Shown here piece by piece: positions 2,856-20,890 of a stretch of DNA of 35,997 nt (position 1 is the stretch's first letter; each line of letters opens with the position of its first letter). The stretch is from Candidatus Aenigmatarchaeota archaeon (GTDB lineage Archaea > Aenigmatarchaeota > Aenigmatarchaeia > CG10238-14 > SCSR01): assembly GCA_039000685.1 (NCBI GenBank), contig JAWBNW010000002.1:1-35997 (forward strand). Direction: 5' to 3'. The notes beneath the pieces were generated by a model. That model was not told the origin of the DNA and made no database searches. It worked only from the letters and a program-made list of their open reading frames with translations. A program made the translations under genes and the position numbers.

Positions 2856-5225
2856 GTGAAATTAATGAAAGTGATAGCTGATTTTCACATTCATTCATTT
2901 TGGAGTAGAGCAACAAGCAAACAAATGAATTTAGATGGTATTAGTGATGGGGCAAAAATCAAAGGTTTAAACTTAGTTGGCACTGGTGATTTTACTCATC
3001 CAAAGTGGTTTGACGAATTGAGAAAAAAATTGAAACCTGTAGAAAATAGTGGATTGTTTGAATTCAATGGTATCTTGTTTACTTTAACCAGTGAAGTTGC
3101 AACCTACTTTGAAGTTGGAGGGATGATGAAAAGGGTTCATCATGTCATTCATGCCCCTAGCTTTGATGTTGTAAATCAAATAAATGAAGCTTTAAAAAAA
3201 TATGGTGACTTGGCTTCTGACGGTAGGCCAATTTTAAATTTGAGTGCAACAGAACTTGTGGAAATTTTAACTCAAATTAGCAATGATATTTTAATTTATC
3301 CAGCACATGCCTGGACGCCTTGGATGAGCTGTTTTGGAAGTAAATCAGGCTTTAATTCAATGGAAGAATGTTATCAAGATCAAGCCAAGCATATCTATGC
3401 ATTGGAAACTGGAATGTCTTGTTATGATGGGAAAACTGAAGTTTTAACCAGTAATGGTTGGAAAAAAATTTCTCGGGTAAAAAAATCAGATGAAATTTGC
3501 ACTTTAGATCCTAAAACAAACGAGATTAAATTTCAAAAGCCTAAGGAGATATTCTCTTATAAATACAAAGGAAAAATGTACAGACTGAAAACTAAAAGAG
3601 TAGATTTGTTTGTTACTCCAAATCATAAACTTTTCGTTAGCAAATGCGATTTTCACAAACAACCTAAATTCTTTTTAAAAGAAGCCGAATTTCTGTTCAA
3701 TAAATCAAAGAGATTTAAAAAAGATGGCATTTGGGTCGGTAATAATACAAACTTTTTTGTTTTACCTTCTGTGAAAATAAAATACGGAAATCACCATTAC
3801 AAAGGGTTCCGAGTCAAGAAAGAAAAGAAAATTCCTATAAAACCATGGTTGAAATTTTTTGGATTTTGGCTAGCAGAAGGGTGGACAACAGAAGGAAAAA
3901 ACGGGGACTATTGTGTCTACATAGCTAATTCTAATAAGAGTTTAATTTCCGAAATGCAGCAAATTCTCAAAAGTTTTGGATATAATCCTTATCTTTATAC
4001 AAATAAAGGAATTGAGACGCTAAGGATAAGAGACTATCAATTATTTCATTATCTTAAACAGTTTGGGAAAAGTTCTGATAGATTTGTTCCCAAAGAAATA
4101 AAGTCTTTGCAAAAAGGGCTTCTTGAAATATTTTTCAACTACTATATTAAAGGAGATGGACACATTTATGGCCGAAAAGGCAGGGGTTTGTCTGCAATCA
4201 CTAGCTCTACCAGATTGCGAGACGATCTTCAGGAAATTGCATTAAAAATAGGAATTTCCGCTTATTATAAATTACATAAGAAAAAAGGAACTTTATTTCT
4301 TAGTCCTGGTTATAAGTATTCTAGAAAGTACAAACAAAAAAAAGATACTTGGGTTGTTTATTTTATTAGGAAAAATATTCACACAGTGTTGCCATCCGCT
4401 ATCAAAAAAAATAAATATATAGAATCTTGGGTTGATTTTAATGGTAAAGTATTTTGTGTATCTGTTCCAAATCAAGTAATTTATATTAGAAGAAACGGTA
4501 TTCCTGTTTGGTGTGGAAATTCCGACCCCGCGATGAACTGGAGATTGTCTGATTTGGACAGGTTCACTCTTGTGAGTAACAGTGATAGCCACAGCCCATG
4601 GAGCTGGCGTTTGGGAAGAGAAGCAAATGTTTTTGATTTGAAAAAAATAACCTATTGGGAAATTTTTGATGCTATTAAAAATAAAGACAAGAAAAGTTTT
4701 TTGTACACGATAGAAGTTGACCCAAACTATGGAAAATATCATTTCACTGGTCATAGGAATTGTAATGTGGTTTTGCATCCAAGAGATGCTATTAAGTTAA
4801 ACAATATTTGTCCAAAATGTCATAGAAAACTTACAGTTGGTGTGTTGCAGAGAGTGGAAGAACTTGCTGATAGGCCAGAAGGTTTTGTTCCAAAAGACGC
4901 CATTCCTTTCAAGACTCTGTTGCCTTTGTATGAAATCATTTCTTTTGCTTGGGGTTCGGGAGAGCTTTATTCAAAAAAAGTTTTGGAAGAGCATAACAAA
5001 CTAATAGAAAAGTTTGGAAATGAATTGAATGTTTTGTTGAATGTTCCAAAAGAAGAGCTGGTAAAAGTTACGAATGAAAAAATTGCAAATGCGATAATAA
5101 AAGTGAGAGAAGGAAAAGTCAAATACATACAGGGGGCAGATGGTCGATATGGTCAACCAATTTTCGATGAAAGAATTATTCCTAAACAGAGCTTTCATTA
5201 CCAAAAAAATCTAACTGAATTTTAG
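2856..5225 (+). CDS. endonuclease Q-like PHP-domain nuclease, interrupted by an intein
   Basis: N-terminal ADFHIHS...KGLNLVGTGDFTHP, then RVHHV, PAHAWTPW, and after the intein SDPAM...LVSNSDSHSP..RLGREANVF, GKYHFTGH and the zinc-finger CPKC. This parallels P. furiosus EndoQ as I remember it. The extein is 422 aa. GTG at 2856 or ATG at 2865 could be the start. Confidence 0.7.
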   Translation: MKLMKVIADFHIHSFWSRATSKQMNLDGISDGAKIKGLNLVGTGDFTHPKWFDELRKKLKPVENSGLFEFNGILFTLTSEVATYFEVGGMMKRVHHVIHAPSFDVVNQINEALKKYGDLASDGRPILNLSATELVEILTQISNDILIYPAHAWTPWMSCFGSKSGFNSMEECYQDQAKHIYALETGMSCYDGKTEVLTSNGWKKISRVKKSDEICTLDPKTNEIKFQKPKEIFSYKYKGKMYRLKTKRVDLFVTPNHKLFVSKCDFHKQPKFFLKEAEFLFNKSKRFKKDGIWVGNNTNFFVLPSVKIKYGNHHYKGFRVKKEKKIPIKPWLKFFGFWLAEGWTTEGKNGDYCVYIANSNKSLISEMQQILKSFGYNPYLYTNKGIETLRIRDYQLFHYLKQFGKSSDRFVPKEIKSLQKGLLEIFFNYYIKGDGHIYGRKGRGLSAITSSTRLRDDLQEIALKIGISAYYKLHKKKGTLFLSPGYKYSRKYKQKKDTWVVYFIRKNIHTVLPSAIKKNKYIESWVDFNGKVFCVSVPNQVIYIRRNGIPVWCGNSDPAMNWRLSDLDRFTLVSNSDSHSPWSWRLGREANVFDLKKITYWEIFDAIKNKDKKSFLYTIEVDPNYGKYHFTGHRNCNVVLHPRDAIKLNNICPKCHRKLTVGVLQRVEELADRPEGFVPKDAIPFKTLLPLYEIISFAWGSGELYSKKVLEEHNKLIEKFGNELNVLLNVPKEELVKVTNEKIANAIIKVREGKVKYIQGADGRYGQPIFDERIIPKQSFHYQKNLTEF
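3420..4520 (+). mobile_element. intein (367 aa) with a LAGLIDADG homing-endonuclease domain
   Basis: Starts with Cys (ETGMS|CYDGKTEVLTSNGW). Block B is VTPNHKLF. The two LAGLIDADG motifs are FFGFWLAEGWT and FNYYIKGDGHI. It ends ...NGIPVWCGN|SDPAM with Ser at +1. Length 1101 nt, in frame. Confidence 0.8.
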
Positions 5226-9876: not shown

Positions 9877-10443
9877 TTATGGTGTCAGTCGCTTGATCTC
9901 ATAATAAGTGCAATCGTTCTCCCTATCAACAACTGCCCAGACGAAAGTTGCCCTTATGTTGTGAGCAAGCCTTACAGCTCTAGACATTTCGGGTAGAGAA
10001 AAAGCTGATTCTTCTGGAACTGCATGAACCACAAACTTTGTGTGCTCATGAGGGGCTTTCGGGCCTCTCACAAGCTTTACCCCTCTCTCATAAACCCTGA
10101 AATGGGCACCAAACTTAAAACCGGTTTTCACGAGATAGCCTCTTTCCCTCAAATCACGATAAACCACAAACTGTGGGTGGAATTGATTGATGTTTTTTGT
10201 GGCTATCTCTAATAGCTCTTTCAGGTCTATATTCCTCTTTTTACTATCTTCTTTTACGAAAATTTTGATTTTTCCTTTTTCTAAAAGGTAGGCTGCTTCC
10301 ACCAACTCTAACTCAAGCCTTTGAGGATTTTCCTCTGGAACAGGCTTGCCAAAACCAGAATCATCATAAAGTCTAACAGAATCTCTATCCCAAATTATCA
10401 CTCTGTCCTCTATCAACTCTCCTTCCCAAATCTTCTCCATCAT
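9877..10443 (-). CDS. endA: tRNA-splicing endonuclease EndA (single-unit, ~188 aa)
   Basis: VVYRDLRERGYLVKTGFKFGAHFRVYERG...HEHTKFVVHAV, the catalytic Tyr/His/Lys region of archaeal EndA. Its size matches the one-unit (homotetramer-type) enzymes. Confidence 0.9.
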   Translation of the reverse strand: MMEKIWEGELIEDRVIIWDRDSVRLYDDSGFGKPVPEENPQRLELELVEAAYLLEKGKIKIFVKEDSKKRNIDLKELLEIATKNINQFHPQFVVYRDLRERGYLVKTGFKFGAHFRVYERGVKLVRGPKAPHEHTKFVVHAVPEESAFSLPEMSRAVRLAHNIRATFVWAVVDRENDCTYYEIKRLTP

Positions 10444-10485: not shown

Positions 10486-10998
10486 TCAAACCCAAACCTT
10501 TTTTTGACAGCTTTGACAAAGTTCTTTCTTTTTCCTGTCCACATCACCAACTGTATTTGAAAAACTCATCACACAAATTGAAATTGGGCAGTGGTCTAAG
10601 CCAAGCATATGACCGACTTCATGAACTGCTTCTTTTACAGCTCTCTCGACTAAAAGACTTTCATTTGGTTTTTGTTTGTAAAAAGTTTGGTCGAGCCTGT
10701 GAATTGAAATGATTCCGTAATTCCCAGGACAGTAAGCTTGGCCAAAAACAAAATTCAAAGATTCGGCGTAAAGGTCTTTATCTGTAATTCCTAATGTCTT
10801 ACCTTGAAATTTTTCTGAAAGGAATTTGAGTACGAGAGGCGCTGGATATTGTTGCCGAATTGAATTGCAAATTTCTCTTGGAATTTCTATTGGTTTAGTT
10901 GTTTCTGTAGTTAGGCTAAAAGTCTCTCTTAGCTCAGAAGCTATTGCTGTTAACACTTCTTCAGGAATTTTACCAAGCTGAACAACTGTAATCTTCAT
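10486..10998 (-). CDS. amzA: archaemetzincin (peptidase M54)
   Basis: HEVGHMLGLDHC...CVM plus the C-terminal CxxC. Start moved to MKITVVQLG (ATG at 10998) because the longer ORF would overlap tRNA-Phe. Confidence 0.85.
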   Translation of the reverse strand: MKITVVQLGKIPEEVLTAIASELRETFSLTTETTKPIEIPREICNSIRQQYPAPLVLKFLSEKFQGKTLGITDKDLYAESLNFVFGQAYCPGNYGIISIHRLDQTFYKQKPNESLLVERAVKEAVHEVGHMLGLDHCPISICVMSFSNTVGDVDRKKKELCQSCQKKVWV

Positions 10999-11076
10999 AA
11001 AGAATAATTTGAATTCAAAATTAAAAAGATGGGACGGGTGGGATTTGAACCCACAACACATCGCTCTTCAGGCGAT

Positions 11077-11091
11077 CTAGAGCCAAATGGT
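11077..11091 (-). other. tRNA-Phe intron 2 (15 nt, position 26/27), BHB
   Basis: AGAG-[CA|A]-CC-ATTT-GG-CTCT-[AG|A]-TCG: H helix AGAG/CTCT, two 3-nt bulges and a minimal inner stem. Confidence 0.75.
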
Positions 11092-11109
11092 TGCTCTCCC
11101 GGGTTGAGC

Positions 11110-11128
11110 CTACGGTAGCAATTGCTAT
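11110..11128 (-). other. tRNA-Phe intron 1 (19 nt, position 9/10), canonical hBHBh'
   Basis: GGG-ACGG-[TA|A]-TAGC-AATT-GCTA-CCGT-[AG|G]-CTC: a 4-bp H helix (ACGG/CCGT) with a 3-nt bulge 3' of each H strand. Confidence 0.8.
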
Positions 11129-11197
11129 TACCGTCCCTCCCGGGTTTGAATTTTTTAATTAATTGATATTTTAAATTTATATTTTATTGACTTTTTA

Positions 11198-16104: not shown

Positions 16105-16196
16105 GCCTCGTTAGCTCAACGGTAGAGCATCCGAAGAGCTTAGCTCTGGTGAACCTTGTAAGCGGAGGGTTGTGGGTTCAAATCCCACACGAGGCT
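16105..16196 (+). tRNA. tRNA-Thr (UGU) with an intron at 30/31
   Basis: After removing 20 nt: GCCTCGT TA GCTC AACGGTA GAGC A TCCGC CTTGTAA GCGGA GGGTT GTGGG TTCAAAT CCCAC ACGAGGC T (72 nt). Confidence 0.85.
16134..16153 (+). other. tRNA-Thr intron (20 nt, inside the anticodon stem, 30/31), canonical hBHBh'
   Basis: GAG-CATC-[CG|A]-AGAGC-TTA-GCTCT-GGTG-[AA|C]-CTT: H helix CATC/GGTG (one G.U pair) with 3-nt bulges. Confidence 0.8.
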
Positions 16197-16197
16197 C

Positions 16198-17241
16198 TTA
16201 TTTTTGAAGAAAATCGACATCAAACCAACTAGCAATTTTTGTTAAATTGAAATTCTTGATTAAAGAAAAAGTTATTGGTGAAGAGAAATTGGAAAAAATC
16301 CATTTAAAGATTAAGCCTTTTCTGATTGGCCATATCAGCCTTTCTTTCCATTTTTTATCATAATTTTCAAGCAAAAATTTTTTAGAAAAATCTTTTGCTT
16401 CTAAAGCTTTGATGATTGCTTCGCTTGCAATTTCTGAGCAAATTTTGTTGTAAACTAGACCCCCACCAGAAAAAGGCTTAATTTGACAAGCAGAGTCTCC
16501 AACCAAAAGCACATTATCTACAACTGAACTTTCAATTATTCCATATCTTAGAAAATCTCCAATTTTATTATAGGCCTTGACTCTTCCGAATCTTTCCATC
16601 AAGAATTTTTCCAAGTATTTGTTGGGGTTTTCTTTTGTTAATAGGCCTACTCTTGCAATTCTTTCACTCTCAGGAACAACCCAAGCAAAACCTAAAGGAG
16701 CAATTTTTGAACCAAAATGAAGTTCAACTGTCTTAGCATCAAAGTTTGATTTTACCTTAACTTGTAAAGCAAATAACAAATTTTCCGGTTGTTTTATTTT
16801 AGCTTTCTTGGCAACAGTTGAATTTGGTCCATCTGCCCCAACTAAAATCTTTGTTTGAAATTTTCCTTTGGTTGTAAAGATTGTTTTACCTTTTAAATCT
16901 AGGAATCTTGTTGATGTCTTGATTTCGGCTCCCACTTTCTCAGCATTTTTTGCAAGCCAGCTGTCATATTTTTTTCTGTCTAAAACAAGCATCGGTTCTT
17001 TTGAATTAACTTCAAAAAATTCTTTGCCACAAAAAAATCTTGCCTTCCTAATTTTGTTCAAAGTTATATTTTTTGGAATTTTACCAATTCTCCTGCTAAC
17101 TAAGCCTGTACATTGAACGGGCTCTCCTATTCTTTGGTGTTCCTCCAAAATCAGGACATTAAATCCTTTTTTGGCAACAATTTTGGCTGTTATACAGCCT
17201 GCAGGACCAGCACCAACTACAATACAATCAAAAAGAGTCAT
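16198..17241 (-). CDS. geranylgeranyl reductase family flavoprotein (archaeal lipid saturation)
   Basis: N-terminal DCIVVGAGPAGC FAD motif, LEEH, GADG and LVGDSA motifs. 347 aa. Confidence 0.8.
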   Translation of the reverse strand: MTLFDCIVVGAGPAGCITAKIVAKKGFNVLILEEHQRIGEPVQCTGLVSRRIGKIPKNITLNKIRKARFFCGKEFFEVNSKEPMLVLDRKKYDSWLAKNAEKVGAEIKTSTRFLDLKGKTIFTTKGKFQTKILVGADGPNSTVAKKAKIKQPENLLFALQVKVKSNFDAKTVELHFGSKIAPLGFAWVVPESERIARVGLLTKENPNKYLEKFLMERFGRVKAYNKIGDFLRYGIIESSVVDNVLLVGDSACQIKPFSGGGLVYNKICSEIASEAIIKALEAKDFSKKFLLENYDKKWKERLIWPIRKGLIFKWIFSNFSSPITFSLIKNFNLTKIASWFDVDFLQK

Positions 17242-18562
17242 CCAACAACCTCTGAAGTTTGTTTATTACTTCGGTTTCTGAAAATAGTTTGACTGGAGAA
17301 TTTATACCCTCCACCCAAACTTTAACTGTAGAATAAGGTAATTTGAATCTTTTAGAAATTTCTTTTATAGATTTTCCCTTTTCAAATTCTTTTTTTACCT
17401 CTAAAAATAGAGCATTTCTATATTTACTTCTTTTGATTCTGTTTTTGACGATCCTTAATGTTCTTATAAATTCCTTTTTCCTATCATCTGAAAAATTAGG
17501 AACAAATCTGAAGAACTTGATATAGTTTTCAGCACTACAAGATACGTAGAAGTAAGATTTACTTACCAATTTACCATCTTTGTTCCTTATGTATGATTCT
17601 TTGGACCACTTAACTGCAGTTGATTTTATACCAAATTGGCCAAGCAGCTTTCGGATTTCATTCATAAAATTCTCTTGTTCTTTTTTGAGTTCTAAAACCT
17701 TGCTTAATTGAAAACATAAATAAAAACTTCTTTTTGACCAAATTGGTTTTGTTCCATCTGCAGACCATAAGACACCAAGAAAAATTGACTTTAATTCATC
17801 GGGTAATTTAAAAACCCATTGAGGAATTTTTATAGCCTGAACAATTTTGTCTCCCTTTGGTGCTCCTGCTGCATAAAGAAGCCTTGAAATAGCAGCATTA
17901 TTAATAATAAGATAGTTAGCTCTACCTTTTATAATTCTATCTTGAAATACACCTTCTGTCTCCTTTGTTTTTAATTTACATTTTAATGAAGGTAATTCCA
18001 ATTTTATTTCTTTCATTAATAATTGAAGTGTTTTTCTATCTCCAGCCAATGTAATTTGTGTTAAATTATTGCCCAAATTACCATCTCCAAAAATCCATGC
18101 TAATATTTTCAAAAATAATTTAAACTTTGAATTATTCTTAGAAATTAGAGGAAGTAATCCTAACTTTGTCAGTGTAATTACACACCTAATAGCCCTTGGA
18201 GTAGTTTTAGATGACCAATTACTTACAGTTTGTTTAGGAATTTTTAATTTGATAGCTATATCTTTTAATTTTACTCCTTGCTTCCTCATTTTTTTAGCAG
18301 CAATATAATTGAAAGCTAGCCCCTGTTCTTTCTTATTGTAAGTTCTTATTATATCTTCAAATGTTACTATTGCGTCTTCATTCGTTTCAAAAAAATCTTC
18401 TTCATCTTTCCAGCTTTTACCTTGGAATCTTAAGCCTAGTTTTCTAGCCTTCTTTTGAACGCTATAATAACTTCTATTTAAAATTTTAGAAAGCTTAATT
18501 ACACCAAACTTTTCATAGTTATTTTTCAATAGCGTAATTTCTTCTTCTTTCCATTTCCTCAT
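17228..18562 (-). CDS. free-standing LAGLIDADG endonuclease-like protein with Myb/SANT-like and HTH modules
   Basis: N-terminal WKEEEITLL..., HTH IPKQTVSNWSSKTTP, LAGLIDADG motifs LAWIFGDGNL and FLGVLWSADGTK, and C-terminal HTH IKEISKRFKLPYSTVKVWVEG. Confidence 0.75.
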   Translation of the reverse strand: MRKWKEEEITLLKNNYEKFGVIKLSKILNRSYYSVQKKARKLGLRFQGKSWKDEEDFFETNEDAIVTFEDIIRTYNKKEQGLAFNYIAAKKMRKQGVKLKDIAIKLKIPKQTVSNWSSKTTPRAIRCVITLTKLGLLPLISKNNSKFKLFLKILAWIFGDGNLGNNLTQITLAGDRKTLQLLMKEIKLELPSLKCKLKTKETEGVFQDRIIKGRANYLIINNAAISRLLYAAGAPKGDKIVQAIKIPQWVFKLPDELKSIFLGVLWSADGTKPIWSKRSFYLCFQLSKVLELKKEQENFMNEIRKLLGQFGIKSTAVKWSKESYIRNKDGKLVSKSYFYVSCSAENYIKFFRFVPNFSDDRKKEFIRTLRIVKNRIKRSKYRNALFLEVKKEFEKGKSIKEISKRFKLPYSTVKVWVEGINSPVKLFSETEVINKLQRLLDDSF

Positions 18563-18636: not shown

Positions 18637-19394
18637 TTATCTTCCAAACCTACGTTGCCTTCGATTAAACTCTTTTATACACCAAATTAAATCCCTTTTT
18701 GTAAAATCGGGCCAAAACTTGGGAAGAAATATTAATTCTGCATAAGCTGCTTGCCATAAGAGAAAATTAGAAAGTCTTTTCTCCCCTCCTGTACGAATTA
18801 AACAATCTATGGGAGCTGGAACAAGTAAGTTAGCTTCTATATCTTTTTCTGTTATCTCTATTCTTCCAAGCTTAATTGCCTTTTCTGCGATTTTCTTTAT
18901 TGCTTGCGTTAATTCAAACTTGCTTCCATAAGCAATCATTATGTTTAAAACCCTTTTCTGATATTTTGCAGTTTTTTGCATTATTTTTCCCATAAGTTTA
19001 ACGAGTTTTGGAGGCAATCTTTCCAAATCACCAACAAACCTTACCTTGACTTGATATTTGTCTAAAAAGCTTCCTTCTTTCTTTTCCCATCTTTCGAAGT
19101 ATTCATAAAATAATTTGAAAATTTCTTCCAGCTCTTTTTTTGGTCTATTCAAATTTTCTGTTGATAACACATAGGCTGAGACTTGTGGTATTCCAAGCTC
19201 TAAACACCACTGCAAAAAGTTTTCGAAATTTTTTATGCTTGTGGGCTTGTCGCCCAACAATTTGCACCGTATTTATGGCCTTCCCACGGCTGAAGACCAT
19301 GTAGCTTGGCCCACCTTCTGTCTATGGGATTTAAGCCTTTATAGGCTCAAATCTTTCCATCAAGTATTATTCCTAGATGATTTGGAACATTCAA
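18637..19394 (-). CDS. uppS: cis-prenyltransferase (undecaprenyl/polyprenyl diphosphate synthase), three exons joined by removal of two BHB mini-introns
   Basis: Exons are 19394..19355, 19321..19262 and 19232..18637, totalling 696 nt = 231 aa. The spliced N-terminus is MNVPNHLGIILDGNRRWAKLHGLQPWEGHKYGAKNFENFLQWCLELGI...STENLNRP...RTGGEKRLSNFLLWQAAYAEL...RRFG. TTG start preceded by the GGGGTGAT SD. Unspliced, the gene has a TGA and then a frameshift. Confidence 0.75.
19233..19261 (-). other. uppS intron B (29 nt, frame-shifting), BHB
   Basis: GTGC-[AA|A]-TTGT(T)GGGC-GACAA-GCCCACAA-GCAT-[AA|A]: H helix GTGC/GCAT with 3-nt AAA bulges. The boundary can slide within the A runs without changing the product. 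Confidence 0.7.
19322..19354 (-). other. uppS intron A (33 nt, contains an in-frame TGA), canonical hBHBh'
   Basis: (TTG)-ATGG-[AA|A]-GATTTGAGCCT-ATAA-AGGCTTAAATC-CCAT-[AG|A]-(CAG): H helix ATGG/CCAT and an 11-bp inner hairpin. Confidence 0.75.
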
Positions 19395-19398
19395 CTAT

Positions 19399-19406
19399 AT
19401 CACCCC
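19399..19406 (-). promoter_or_regulatory. Shine-Dalgarno for uppS
   Basis: GGGGTGAT lies 4 nt upstream of the TTG start. AT-rich TATA-like sequence sits further upstream. Confidence 0.4.
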
Positions 19407-19442: not shown

Positions 19443-20675
19443 TTAGCATGTAATTTCCTTAAGAAATGGAAACCTTTGTGTTAATAAATCCCAATCCTTT
19501 GGTAGTAGATTAAGCTTAACTGACTGAATAGCTATGTAAGCAGGTTTTTTAAACCAAGATTTAATAGTAGATCTAGGAAATCCTGTAATAATACTAATCT
19601 GGTTGGAAGTATAATTTTTAACTCGTAATCTTAGAACATTCCAATAATCTTCAGCAGAATATCTGTATTTCTTTTTATTTTTAATTATTTTATCAAGAGC
19701 GTATTCCTTCCTTTTTATAGTAAAACCAATTTCTTTCCTAAAAATTTCAAGATAATTAGAAAAACTAAATCTAATTTTATATAATTTTCTACCTTTCTTT
19801 GCAAGTTCTATTTTTGTAAAAATCCCGAACTTTGATAACAAAAATCTTATATCTTCTAATCCATTCTTGTTAGAAGAAGTTGCCTCGATTGCTCTATTAG
19901 AAATATCAACACTCCCTTCTGAATCAAAAAACCCTTTCAAGAAAGATGAAATTATAAGTTTATCATTATTTTTAATTATTTCTTGGGGAACTCTCCACAC
20001 ATACGAATTAAATTCACCGTACCTCTTTAAATCTTCATAAACCTTTTTTCTTTGTAAATAAACAATATATTGTCGTTTACATTTAGAAAGTCCAGAAGGA
20101 GTTATTCTGATACCGGGTGGTATATTACACTCTTTTGCAATAATACCATAAACATTTTTTATTTTATTTTTAAATTCATCGGCAAACTCTTTATCAGTAA
20201 CTCTTAACCCTAAGAAGTAATTAAAGTATTTATAACCTTTGTATTTTACCAACTTCCGATAGAGCATACCATCCCCACAAAGAACGCCAAGAATATAGGC
20301 TTTTGCTGGAGTTAATGTTTTATAATTTTTGTTTGGAATTTCTAATGGAGTTTTTCTATATCTATTTCTATCCCTAGGAATCTGAAATTTTTTCATTTGT
20401 TTAAAAATATAAGTTGTAGAGCAACCAAAAACTTTTGCTATTTCTTGAAGTGAAAGTCCTTTTTTGTAATAAAGTTCATATAATTTATTTCTCTCGAATT
20501 TTGGTAATCTCAAATCATTCTTTCTTATTTTTAAATTCTTATAGAGTTTCCACTCAATACTATCTTTTGATCTATTTAACCTTCTAGCTATTTCTTCATT
20601 TGATAGACGTTCTTTAGCATATTTTACCAATAAATTGATTTCAGTTTTATTCCATCTTCTTCCCATATCTATCAC
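19443..20675 (-). CDS. free-standing LAGLIDADG endonuclease-like protein with Myb/SANT-like and HTH modules
   Basis: WNKTEINLL..., HTH module LYELYYKKGLSLQEIAKVFGCSTTYIFKQMKKFQIPRDR, LAGLIDADG motifs AYILGVLCGDGML and FLKGFFDSEGSV, and C-terminal HTH ITGFPRSTIKSWFKK. 20675 is a GTG; the ATG at 20666 (MGRRWNK) is the likelier start. Confidence 0.75.
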   Translation of the reverse strand: MIDMGRRWNKTEINLLVKYAKERLSNEEIARRLNRSKDSIEWKLYKNLKIRKNDLRLPKFERNKLYELYYKKGLSLQEIAKVFGCSTTYIFKQMKKFQIPRDRNRYRKTPLEIPNKNYKTLTPAKAYILGVLCGDGMLYRKLVKYKGYKYFNYFLGLRVTDKEFADEFKNKIKNVYGIIAKECNIPPGIRITPSGLSKCKRQYIVYLQRKKVYEDLKRYGEFNSYVWRVPQEIIKNNDKLIISSFLKGFFDSEGSVDISNRAIEATSSNKNGLEDIRFLLSKFGIFTKIELAKKGRKLYKIRFSFSNYLEIFRKEIGFTIKRKEYALDKIIKNKKKYRYSAEDYWNVLRLRVKNYTSNQISIITGFPRSTIKSWFKKPAYIAIQSVKLNLLPKDWDLLTQRFPFLKEITC

Positions 20676-20787: not shown

Positions 20788-20890
20788 GGGGTCGTCGTCT
20801 AACCAGGCAGGACAGCAGGCTCCAGTTTCATGGAGCTCGGATAAAAGATGAAGAAACCTGTATGTGGGGGTTCAAATCCCCTCGACCCCA
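20788..20890 (+). tRNA. tRNA-Trp (CCA) with a ~30-nt intron in the anticodon loop region
   Basis: GGGGTCG TC GTCT AACCAGGCA GGAC A GCAGG CTCCAG[intron]A CCTGT ATGT GGGGG TTCAAAT CCCCT CGACCCC A. All allowed intron placements give the anticodon CCA. Confidence 0.8.
20826..20855 (+). other. tRNA-Trp intron (30 nt; boundaries uncertain by up to 2 nt)
   Basis: At the canonical 37/38 placement the H helix would be CTCC/GAAG with a C.A mismatch. The strongest helix is TTCAT/ATGAA (20827-31 / 20848-52). This is a relaxed rather than strict BHB. Confidence 0.5.

Follow-up and report, generated by a model that had tools for sequence, protein, structure and literature searches.

Predicted EndA-spliced mini-introns at two codons of uppS in Aenigmatarchaeota and their association with an upstream LAGLIDADG gene

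How can an uppS gene whose reading frame breaks off twice near its 5' end encode a complete UppS protein? This question is raised by a stretch of 35,997 nucleotides (nt) from a Candidatus Aenigmatarchaeota archaeon (GCA_039000685.1, contig JAWBNW010000002.1, positions 1 to 35,997), in the following called the window. The window is archaeal sequence (34% G+C, archaeal signal recognition particle RNA at 1234-1517), and its nearest relatives are metagenome-assembled genomes (MAGs) of Aenigmatarchaeota, which belong to the DPANN archaea. A preliminary description of this DNA had proposed that uppS is interrupted by two bulge-helix-bulge (BHB) mini-introns removed by the tRNA splicing machinery. 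Here, we argue that uppS is very probably transcribed into a pre-mRNA with two relaxed BHB introns, for which splicing by the tRNA-splicing endonuclease EndA is predicted. Furthermore, the introns are part of a family that, judged by comparative sequence data, is patchily distributed across Aenigmatarchaeota at exactly two uppS codons and genetically linked to an upstream LAGLIDADG gene.

First, we focus on the reading frame (Table 1). Unspliced, frame 0 runs from the TTG start codon through LNVPNHLGIILDGKI into a stop (MNVPNHLGIILDG-K-I-stop); further on it reads RRWAKLHGLQPWEGHKYGA and then meets another stop. The 207-amino-acid (aa) open reading frame (ORF) at 18637..19260 sits in the third frame and is UppS-like only from KNFENFLQWCLELGI. 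The Shine-Dalgarno (SD) box, the TTG at 19394, the K-I-TGA end, the resumption of the frame and the 207-aa ORF in another frame had all been listed in the preliminary description and were reproduced from the sequence. The same holds for the removal of 19322-19354 (site A) and 19233-19261 (site B), which yields a 696-nt coding sequence (CDS) for 231 aa. The predicted spliced RNA reads ...GAUGGAA/ACAGAAGG... across the site-A junction and ...GGUGCAA/AAAAUUUCG... across the site-B junction. Exon 1 encodes the DG of the conserved active-site motif DGNRRWA, and GGTGGT/GGGGTGAT boxes are also found 5' of exon 1 at related loci.

The identity of the spliced product as UppS and its spacing of conserved segments, previously compared with the E. 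coli protein, hold from end to end. Both family profiles are covered completely, PF01255 at positions 1-219 of 219 (239.7 bits) and TIGR00055 at 1-228 of 228 (226 bits, cut-off 109.55), and the spliced product aligns gap-free through both junctions with solved UPPS structures (for E. coli 1JP3, residues 5-230 with 19-244). The unspliced 207-aa ORF covers positions 24-219 of PF01255 only (201.4 bits), and a full-length match including the N-terminal DGNRRWA and GH..G segments is obtained with the spliced product only. These comparisons bear on the idea that the inserts stay in the mRNA, that the product is the 207-aa protein starting at the TTG at 19260 or a set of separately translated pieces, and that the hairpins in the inserts serve as attenuators or regulators. 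A TTG-start ORF at 19260 does exist, and the structures are stable. However, the 207-aa product lacks profile positions 1-23, among them the DGNRRWA and GH segments aligned to UPPS structures. In UPPS, these segments form the substrate-binding and catalytic site. Moreover, exons 1 and 2 are conserved in frames that are joined only by splicing, and the internal TTG lies within intron B and is not conserved in the introns of other lineages. We consider retention of the inserts very unlikely.

Both inserts fold in the way the preliminary description had proposed. At each site, RNAfold pairs four exon nt with the four nt preceding the last two of the insert in a 4-bp helix (H), followed by an AAA bulge and an intronic hairpin (h'), which has 11 bp at site A and 8 bp with one bulged U at site B. 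Thus, in introns of the window type the 5' AAA bulge is closed by H on one side and by the intronic hairpin on the other. Both structures also form when the 146-nt region is folded as a whole to minimum energy (z = -3.78; 0 of 200 shuffles equal). The 5' cut at site A lies 2 nt beyond the H strand within the AAA bulge at 19354-19356, and at site B it lies within the AAA bulge at 19261-19263, with the 3' cut after 19233. At all intron-bearing loci examined, cutting 2 nt 3' of each H strand puts the UppS exons back into frame at both sites. In archaeal pre-tRNAs, the 5' bulge follows the exonic and the 3' bulge the intronic H strand, and EndA cuts after the second nt of each bulge. This rule is exactly what restores the uppS frame.

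We infer the following pathway. The four exon nt at each site (AUGG at A, GUGC at B) would pair near the 3' end of the intron and form the central helix H. The 5' splice site would lie 2 nt after the exonic strand in the 3-nt AAA bulge closed by h', and the 3' splice site 2 nt after the intronic H strand. The EndA encoded in the window would cut both sites and an RtcB-type ligase would join the exons, yielding the 696-nt ORF for the complete UppS. Splicing would be needed for function, as translation of the unspliced RNA would give either a 15-residue peptide or an N-terminally truncated protein without the DGNRRWA segment.

Comparison with orthologous loci shows that the inserts are not peculiar to the window. 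The protein, not an RNA pattern, served as query in scans of species-representative genomes and metagenome contigs, so that the about 90 loci returned are an unbiased sample with respect to structure. Inserts are present at the same two codon positions in 14 lineages (the window and 13 others), and 41 lineages are intronless; for these counts near-identical loci were collapsed and only loci with sufficient upstream sequence were considered. Only site A is occupied in L016 (20 nt), L020 (16 nt), L025 (19 nt) and L026 (20 nt), and only site B in L014 (32 nt), L037 (30 nt), L092 (29 nt) and L093 (30 nt). Both sites are occupied in L024/L094 (26 and 52 nt), in L071 (21 and 29 nt) and in L096, L098 and L099 (13-14 and 13 nt). 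With the window included, insert lengths are 33, 26, 21, 20, 20, 19, 16, 14, 14 and 13 nt at site A and 52, 32, 30, 30, 29, 29, 29, 13, 13 and 13 nt at site B. Every insert contains an in-frame stop or is of a length not divisible by three. The repeated occurrence of structured, frame-restoring inserts at these two codons across many lineages excludes a chance origin. Neither insert is found in the closest different species (L001, 85% protein identity), and intron-bearing lineages are scattered among intronless ones in a neighbor-joining tree of UppS, which was used for interspersion only, its deeper topology looking unreliable and being left uninterpreted.

A divergent intron-bearing clade (L096-L100) has inserts of only 13-14 nt in the complementary relaxed form hBH/BHL. 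Here, an outer helix of 4-5 bp (CCGG/CCGG; GCAYG/CGUGC) is followed by a 3-nt bulge and H, and the 5' site lies in the loop. Removal of these inserts likewise restores a PF01255 match over positions 1-219 of 219.

The distribution also weighs on two other explanations. The first is ribosomal bypassing of the 33- and 29-nt segments, or frameshifting, on an mRNA that remains unspliced, with the hairpins as recoding signals. A stop follows soon after the site-A take-off region (GGA AAG AUU UGA), and each gap contains a stable hairpin. Bypassing in phage T4 gene 60 likewise involves take-off from a GGA codon, a stop close by and a hairpin. However, a matching landing codon is missing at both sites, which end in ...CCAUAG/A (A) and ...GCAUAA/A (B) rather than in GGA or GCA. 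The gap varies from 13 to 52 nt across lineages at a constant geometry of a 4-bp helix plus 2 nt, which is the ruler of EndA and not of the ribosome, and the same geometry occurs in tRNA genes of the window, where translation is irrelevant. Two independent bypassing events in one gene, kept in many lineages, would moreover be unprecedented. We regard bypassing as highly improbable.

The second explanation is an assembly or sequencing error, or an inactivated uppS whose function is supplied by another copy or by the host of a DPANN symbiont. Gene callers do give only the truncated 207-aa ORF, DPANN genomes are reduced and often lack lipid-related genes, and one MAG bin (CAYXOT01) holds two uppS-like loci (L026 and L028). 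However, both inserts are present with unchanged sequence in an independent assembly (L002, 96.6% identity over 5.2 kb), so they are no assembly artefact, and 14 lineages from many samples carry homologous inserts. Start codon and SD box are conserved, and in the sister assembly JAVZHJ01 a single uppS locus was found by a pattern-based scan, which a divergent paralog could escape. The 31 comparable codons of exons 1 and 2 differ from those of the intronless L001 by 13 synonymous and 0 nonsynonymous changes, and from those of L014 by 10 synonymous changes and 1 nonsynonymous change. By this codon pattern, exons 1 and 2 are under strong purifying selection, and error or inactivation has only a marginal probability.

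Covariation and codon choice further point to a constraint on the RNA. H is 100% paired at both sites in the alignments (7 lineages at A, 5 at B) and contains one double compensatory change and one G-U/G-C change. The double change, at site A, converts AUGG/CCAU to ACGG/CCGU, and its exonic part is a synonymous change from GAU to GAC. The same H is also present in L092, L093 and L096-L100. The intronic hairpin h' is 91-100% paired (100% at site B) with 3 compensatory pairs at A and 4 at B. In a slid-register control, in which the 3' partners were moved by 1-3 columns, pairing falls to 20-52%. As there are few sequences (7 and 5) and one of them provided the structure, the covariation is supportive and not decisive alone. 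Independent support for an RNA constraint comes from codon usage at the junctions. In intron-bearing alleles the site-A glycine codon is always GGA, which provides the AA of the bulge, and the site-B Gly-Ala pair is always GGU-GCA, which provides GUGC. Among intronless relatives, the site-A codon is GGG, GGA, GGC or GGT, and many different codon pairs encode Gly-Ala at site B.

The splicing enzyme is encoded in the window, as stated in the preliminary description. The protein carries PF02778 and PF01974, and its full length can be aligned with M. jannaschii EndA (1A79, E = 5e-29). It has a 6-residue insertion in the catalytic domain after the YERG segment at residues ~122-131 (YERGVKLVRGPKAPHEH vs YERGANI------DKEH). 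Judged from this alignment, the insertion may be the DPANN-type loop proposed to broaden the substrate range.

Three intron-bearing tRNA genes are also present in the window, and the cut rule had been said to regenerate all three tRNAs. This is borne out for tRNA-Thr and for the first intron of tRNA-Phe, which share the geometry of the uppS introns, i.e., H, a 3-nt bulge, a hairpin and a cut after the second bulge nt; the rule restores tRNA-Thr and the D-arm of tRNA-Phe. The first tRNA-Phe intron (11110-11128; ACGG/UA.A/UAGC-AAUU-GCUA/CCGU/AG.G) even has the H sequence found at uppS site A of other lineages. For tRNA-Trp, no clean H helix could be drawn by hand, and this gene is not counted for the cleavage rule. 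Since tRNA genes in the window carry non-canonical introns of such form, the organism routinely processes them.

Side observations on these tRNA genes are as follows. ARAGORN labels 16105-16197 as tRNA-Leu(TAG); removal of 20 nt by the BHB rule gives tRNA-Thr(UGU) with a normal 5-bp anticodon stem. ARAGORN misses tRNA-Phe(GAA), which scores 27.7 bits, under the Rfam gathering threshold, and whose 3' end overlaps the start of a peptidase M54 ORF (10486-11061). In tRNA-Trp, CUCC of the anticodon loop pairs with GGAG near the 5' end of the intron and not beside the 3' splice site. The tRNA-Trp gene is 99% identical to that of L001, and the adjacent uppS only ~88%. A window-wide scan for further frame-restoring H-B-h'/h-B-H elements gave hundreds of hits; it was unspecific because deletion of nearly any short hairpin inside an ORF passes the test, and no conclusion was drawn from it.

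Several points weigh against EndA-mediated splicing of uppS. The inserts do not have the canonical hBHBh' form, as there is no conserved outer exon-exon helix and, of three candidate pairs, one fails to form in 6 of the 7 sequences. Because the 3' bulge thus lacks a conserved closing outer helix, the motif is the relaxed HBh' and not hBHBh'. Of the BHB structures claimed in the preliminary description, H, the AAA bulge and the hairpin stand; the refinement concerns the 3' bulge. Relaxed HBh' and hBH/BHL are recognised categories of tRNA introns (PMC5829648). In addition, the EndA of the window looks alpha4-like by sequence, and alpha4 enzymes have classically been described as restricted to the canonical BHB; a broader range has been proposed for DPANN alpha4 enzymes with an extra loop (PMC5829648). 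RtcB was not among the ten largest ORFs of the window, which is a 36-kb fragment. Finally, none of 240 database proteins is identical to the spliced products of 12 intron-bearing loci, the best (94%) being that of a truly intronless relative. Taken together, the proposal of two mini-introns removed by the tRNA splicing machinery gains from the comparative evidence (14 lineages, covariation, codons, selection, EndA and tRNAs) and has to be amended in that the motifs are relaxed rather than canonical.

Are the introns mobile, and by what means? The gene upstream of uppS, which had gone unnoticed in the preliminary description, offers a clue. It lies between tRNA-Trp and uppS, is co-directional with uppS and ends 48 nt before the uppS start codon. 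In the intronless L001 it is absent, and uppS lies ~80 nt from tRNA-Trp, directly before the reductase gene. The motifs ILGVLCGDG (around residue 128) and LKGFFDSEG (around residue 246) are intact with their acidic residues kept, and the protein has weak sequence similarity to I-MsoI and I-DmoI. By these features it is a putative double-motif LAGLIDADG homing endonuclease. Its orthologs form a sharply bounded group (58-72% identity; next best match 39%), and all those with recoverable context lie directly upstream of, and co-directional with, a uppS that gene callers truncate. The first homologs to be found belonged to L024 and L071, then the only other double-intron loci known. All 8 endonuclease-bearing lineages carry intron B, and 6 of the 8 also intron A. 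In deduplicated counts, 8 lineages have introns and the endonuclease, 6 introns without it, none the endonuclease without introns and 41 neither (Fisher p = 2.5e-6). A role of the LAGLIDADG protein as maturase was considered and is unlikely, since six lineages keep a single intron without the gene.

A second free-standing LAGLIDADG gene separates uppS from the geranylgeranyl-reductase-like gene. L001 lacks it, and homologs (50-52% identity) are found downstream of intronless uppS in L079 and L086; hence, this gene shows no association with the introns. LAGLIDADG genes seem to have a hotspot around uppS. Together with an intein in the 789-aa ORF (Table 1), three LAGLIDADG elements lie within the 36-kb window, and in L098 a trans-polyprenyl synthase gene downstream of uppS also has such an intein.

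Comparisons of close relatives illustrate exchange at this locus. L092 and L093 differ by ~9% upstream and by ~4.5% within uppS, and show only 7 differences over the ~2.6-kb cassette with the endonuclease. L037, which has intron B, is 91-94% identical on both flanks, and an unrelated gene replaces the cassette. L094 has the endonuclease and both introns, and L102 has neither but the same synteny; identity between the two is 91-95% upstream and 95.8% downstream. The stretch that runs in L094 from the endonuclease to intron B is missing in L102 or only 67% identical. Mismatches amount to 32 of 97 positions in exons 1 and 2 vs 30 of 600 in exon 3 (p = 5e-14), and the foreign tract has its right end at the 3' junction of intron B, beyond which the two sequences are again highly identical. 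As the clade-mates L010 and L102 are 94% identical in exons 1 and 2, the tract of L094 is the imported one. Thus, a single piece comprising the endonuclease gene, exons 1 and 2 and both introns entered the L094 lineage, in what is a single case of co-conversion. Such a tract is the footprint expected if an intronless allele suffers a double-strand break at or near site B and a donor with the endonuclease serves for its repair. In phage group I introns, collaborative or trans homing proceeds by such break repair (PMC3984707, PMC2790892).

A tentative model, to which we give somewhat less than even chances, is that the uppS mini-introns and the upstream endonuclease form a composite mobile element spreading by collaborative homing. 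The endonuclease would cut intronless uppS at or near the insertion site of intron B, and repair of the break from the donor would bring in the whole stretch from the endonuclease gene through exons 1 and 2 to intron B, intron A included. Spliced out by EndA, the introns would leave the essential uppS in working order and at the same time disrupt the target of the endonuclease. Against this model, the cassette also appears to have moved between the L092 and L093 alleles, both of which already had intron B. This near-identical cassette in intron-B alleles whose flanks differ by 5-9% weakens a simple model in which intron B gives immunity to the endonuclease, which is weakened further by L037, a close relative with intron B and without the cassette. 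Recent horizontal transfer of the endonuclease everywhere is rejected. Its divergence tracks that of the neighbouring reductase gene (identities of endonuclease/reductase 70/65, 67/56, 62/51 and 60/51%), so its history is mostly vertical-looking, with clear exchange only in L092/L093 and L094. If the homing model were true, ORF-less archaeal BHB mini-introns would have their first mechanism of mobility at the DNA level, and it would be an archaeal, protein-spliced counterpart of collaborative/trans homing of phage group I introns. In any case, the association of endonuclease and introns is probably the most novel aspect of the locus.

Some further observations concern the uppS locus and its relatives. 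Identity between the window and L001 is strongly mosaic (95-99% upstream in the RuBisCO region and tRNA-Trp, ~83% in exons 1 and 2, 88-92% in exon 3 and 79.5% from the reductase gene onward), which indicates that recombination breakpoints cluster at uppS. In L055, a lone copy of the uppS 5' end (512-571; VVPNHMGFIIDGNRRWARR), in which exon 1 continues without a break into the beginning of exon 2, lies ~1 kb upstream of the real, intronless gene and diverges afterwards. It may be a remnant of recombination at the uppS 5' end. The two loci in MAG CAYXOT01 differ in that L026 has the site-A intron and L028 is partial and intronless with an N-terminal in-frame stop; this second locus could be a paralog, a pseudogene or bin contamination. 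In L096-L100, UppS is 32-33% identical to that of the window (exon-3 part), the endonuclease 58-60% and the reductase 49-53%. Because the neighbouring genes are far closer, uppS of this clade is unusually fast-evolving or was replaced, yet both intron positions are kept. Three of these loci (L096 3699-3760, L098 2856-2915, L099 3364-3425) have TTA where the window has the TTG start, 4 nt after GGGGTGAT/GAGGTGGT. In-frame alternatives for the start are a GTG within the SD-like box right behind the endonuclease stop codon or an ATT a few codons later. The gene arrangement makes translational coupling of uppS to the endonuclease gene possible at these loci.

Table 1. Features of the uppS locus and of related genes in the window (bp and nt positions on the 35,997-nt stretch).
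Feature	Position	Strand	Remarks
SD-like GGGGTGAT	19399..19406	minus	4 nt 5' of uppS TTG; read directly
uppS start TTG	19394..19392	minus	
uppS exon 1	19355..19394	minus	TTG start; MNVPNHLGIILDG and nt 1 of Asn codon
Site A helix H, 5' strand AUGG (exonic)	19357..19360	minus	pairs with intronic CCAU 19324-19327
Intron A (site A, predicted)	19322..19354	minus	33 nt; A/GATTTGAGCC-TATAAA-GGCTTAAATC/CCAT/AG; in-frame TGA inside
uppS exon 2	19262..19321	minus	60 nt; (N)RRWAKLHGLQPWEGHKYGA and nt 1 of Lys codon
Site B helix H, 5' strand GUGC (exonic)	19264..19267	minus	pairs with GCAU 19235-19238
Intron B (site B, predicted)	19233..19261	minus	29 nt; A/TTGTTGGGC-GACAA-GCCCACAA/GCAT/AA; frame-shifting
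uppS exon 3	18637..19232	minus	stop codon included; part reported by gene callers as 207-aa N-terminally truncated protein
EndA, tRNA-splicing endonuclease	9877..10443	minus	188 aa; PF02778 and PF01974; single-subunit, alpha4-like
tRNA-Thr(UGU)	16105..16197	plus	20-nt anticodon-stem intron; CAUC/CG.A/AGAGC-UUA-GCUCU/GGUG/AA.C; Rfam alignment and manual parsing
tRNA-Phe(GAA)	11030..11137	minus	two introns, at about positions 9/10 and 26/27
tRNA-Trp(CCA)	20788..20890	plus	30-nt intron at 37/38
Helix-turn-helix (HTH) and double-motif LAGLIDADG gene, free-standing	19443..20675	minus	410 aa; PF14528 (6.7e-15) and HTH domains
Second HTH and LAGLIDADG gene, free-standing	17228..18562	minus	444 aa; between uppS and geranylgeranyl-reductase-like gene
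Intein-containing 789-aa ORF	2856..5225	plus	LAGLIDADG_3 domain; PF14890 and PF14528

The predicted introns would extend coding-region introns of the endonuclease type to the DPANN superphylum and to an essential lipid-carrier gene. The ~14 natural variants represent a covariation data set on what EndA must recognise in mRNA, and the alpha4-like host enzyme could test the proposed link of EndA loop insertions to relaxed specificity. Gene callers systematically annotate such uppS genes as N-terminally truncated (192-223 aa), with the active-site segment missing; thus, metabolic reconstructions of DPANN archaea may wrongly score uppS as defective. Moreover, the LAGLIDADG linkage and the one mosaic tract provide a testable model for the spread of tiny ORF-less BHB introns between genomes.

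How does this system compare with known ones? The only archaeal protein-gene cases named in the literature searched are cbf5 of Crenarchaeota and one 5'-untranslated region (UTR) intron of Haloferax (PMC7714728, PMC2738675, PMC12397907), in agreement with the earlier statement that coding-gene BHB introns are documented mainly for cbf5. The same search, mostly outside subscription journals, returned no protein-gene BHB intron for undecaprenyl/uppS, DPANN or Aenigmatarchaeota, and an earlier report is possible. The cbf5 intron (Watanabe 2002; Yoshinari 2006; Yokobori 2009, PMC2738675) resembles the uppS introns as a short, BHB-like intron in a coding region that is linked to the tRNA splicing endonuclease. 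Both also share a patchy distribution, lineage-specific loss and mis-prediction by gene callers. The uppS introns differ in gene and lineage (DPANN/Aenigmatarchaeota), in the presence of two introns per gene and in lengths down to 13 nt. Furthermore, the EndA of the uppS host looks like a single-subunit alpha4 enzyme, whereas cbf5 splicing has been linked to a heterotetramer. Splicing of cbf5 has been shown experimentally, whereas that of uppS is predicted, and no link to a homing endonuclease has been reported for cbf5. The intron in Haloferax volcanii HVO_1309 (Schwarz 2020, PMC7714728) is likewise an mRNA substrate of the archaeal splicing endonuclease. It lies in the 5' UTR and leaves the frame uninterrupted, whereas the uppS CDS is interrupted by two introns.

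Relaxed tRNA introns (HBh', hBH, BHL; Marck and Grosjean 2003; PMC5829648) share with the uppS introns the 4-bp H, the 3-nt bulge, cleavage after 2 nt, a length of 13-50 nt and positions unrelated to the anticodon loop, and the tRNAs of the window carry the same forms. In contrast to tRNA introns, the predicted substrate in uppS is an mRNA, and the exonic H strand is coding and constrained by both protein and RNA structure.

With respect to mobility, collaborative or trans homing (Zeng 2009; Bonocora and Shub 2009; T4 mobE/I-TevIII, PMC2790892; PMC3984707) is similar in that a free-standing endonuclease lies beside a gene with ORF-less introns and co-occurs with them; at uppS, one tract ends at the intron insertion site. 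The uppS introns differ in being predicted protein-spliced BHB introns rather than group I introns and in residing in archaeal cells rather than phages, and the linked endonuclease is a putative LAGLIDADG and not an HNH or GIY-YIG enzyme. Archaeal rRNA BHB introns with LAGLIDADG ORFs (I-DmoI, Desulfurococcus mobilis) also combine a BHB intron and a LAGLIDADG endonuclease in a mobile unit. In these, the endonuclease ORF lies inside a long intron, whereas at uppS the endonuclease gene lies outside and upstream of introns of 13-52 nt. The proposed mechanism itself is the known EndA pathway. New compared with these systems are the gene and lineage, two introns in one CDS with lengths down to 13 nt, both relaxed classes at orthologous sites, the alpha4-like host enzyme and the association with a free-standing LAGLIDADG endonuclease.

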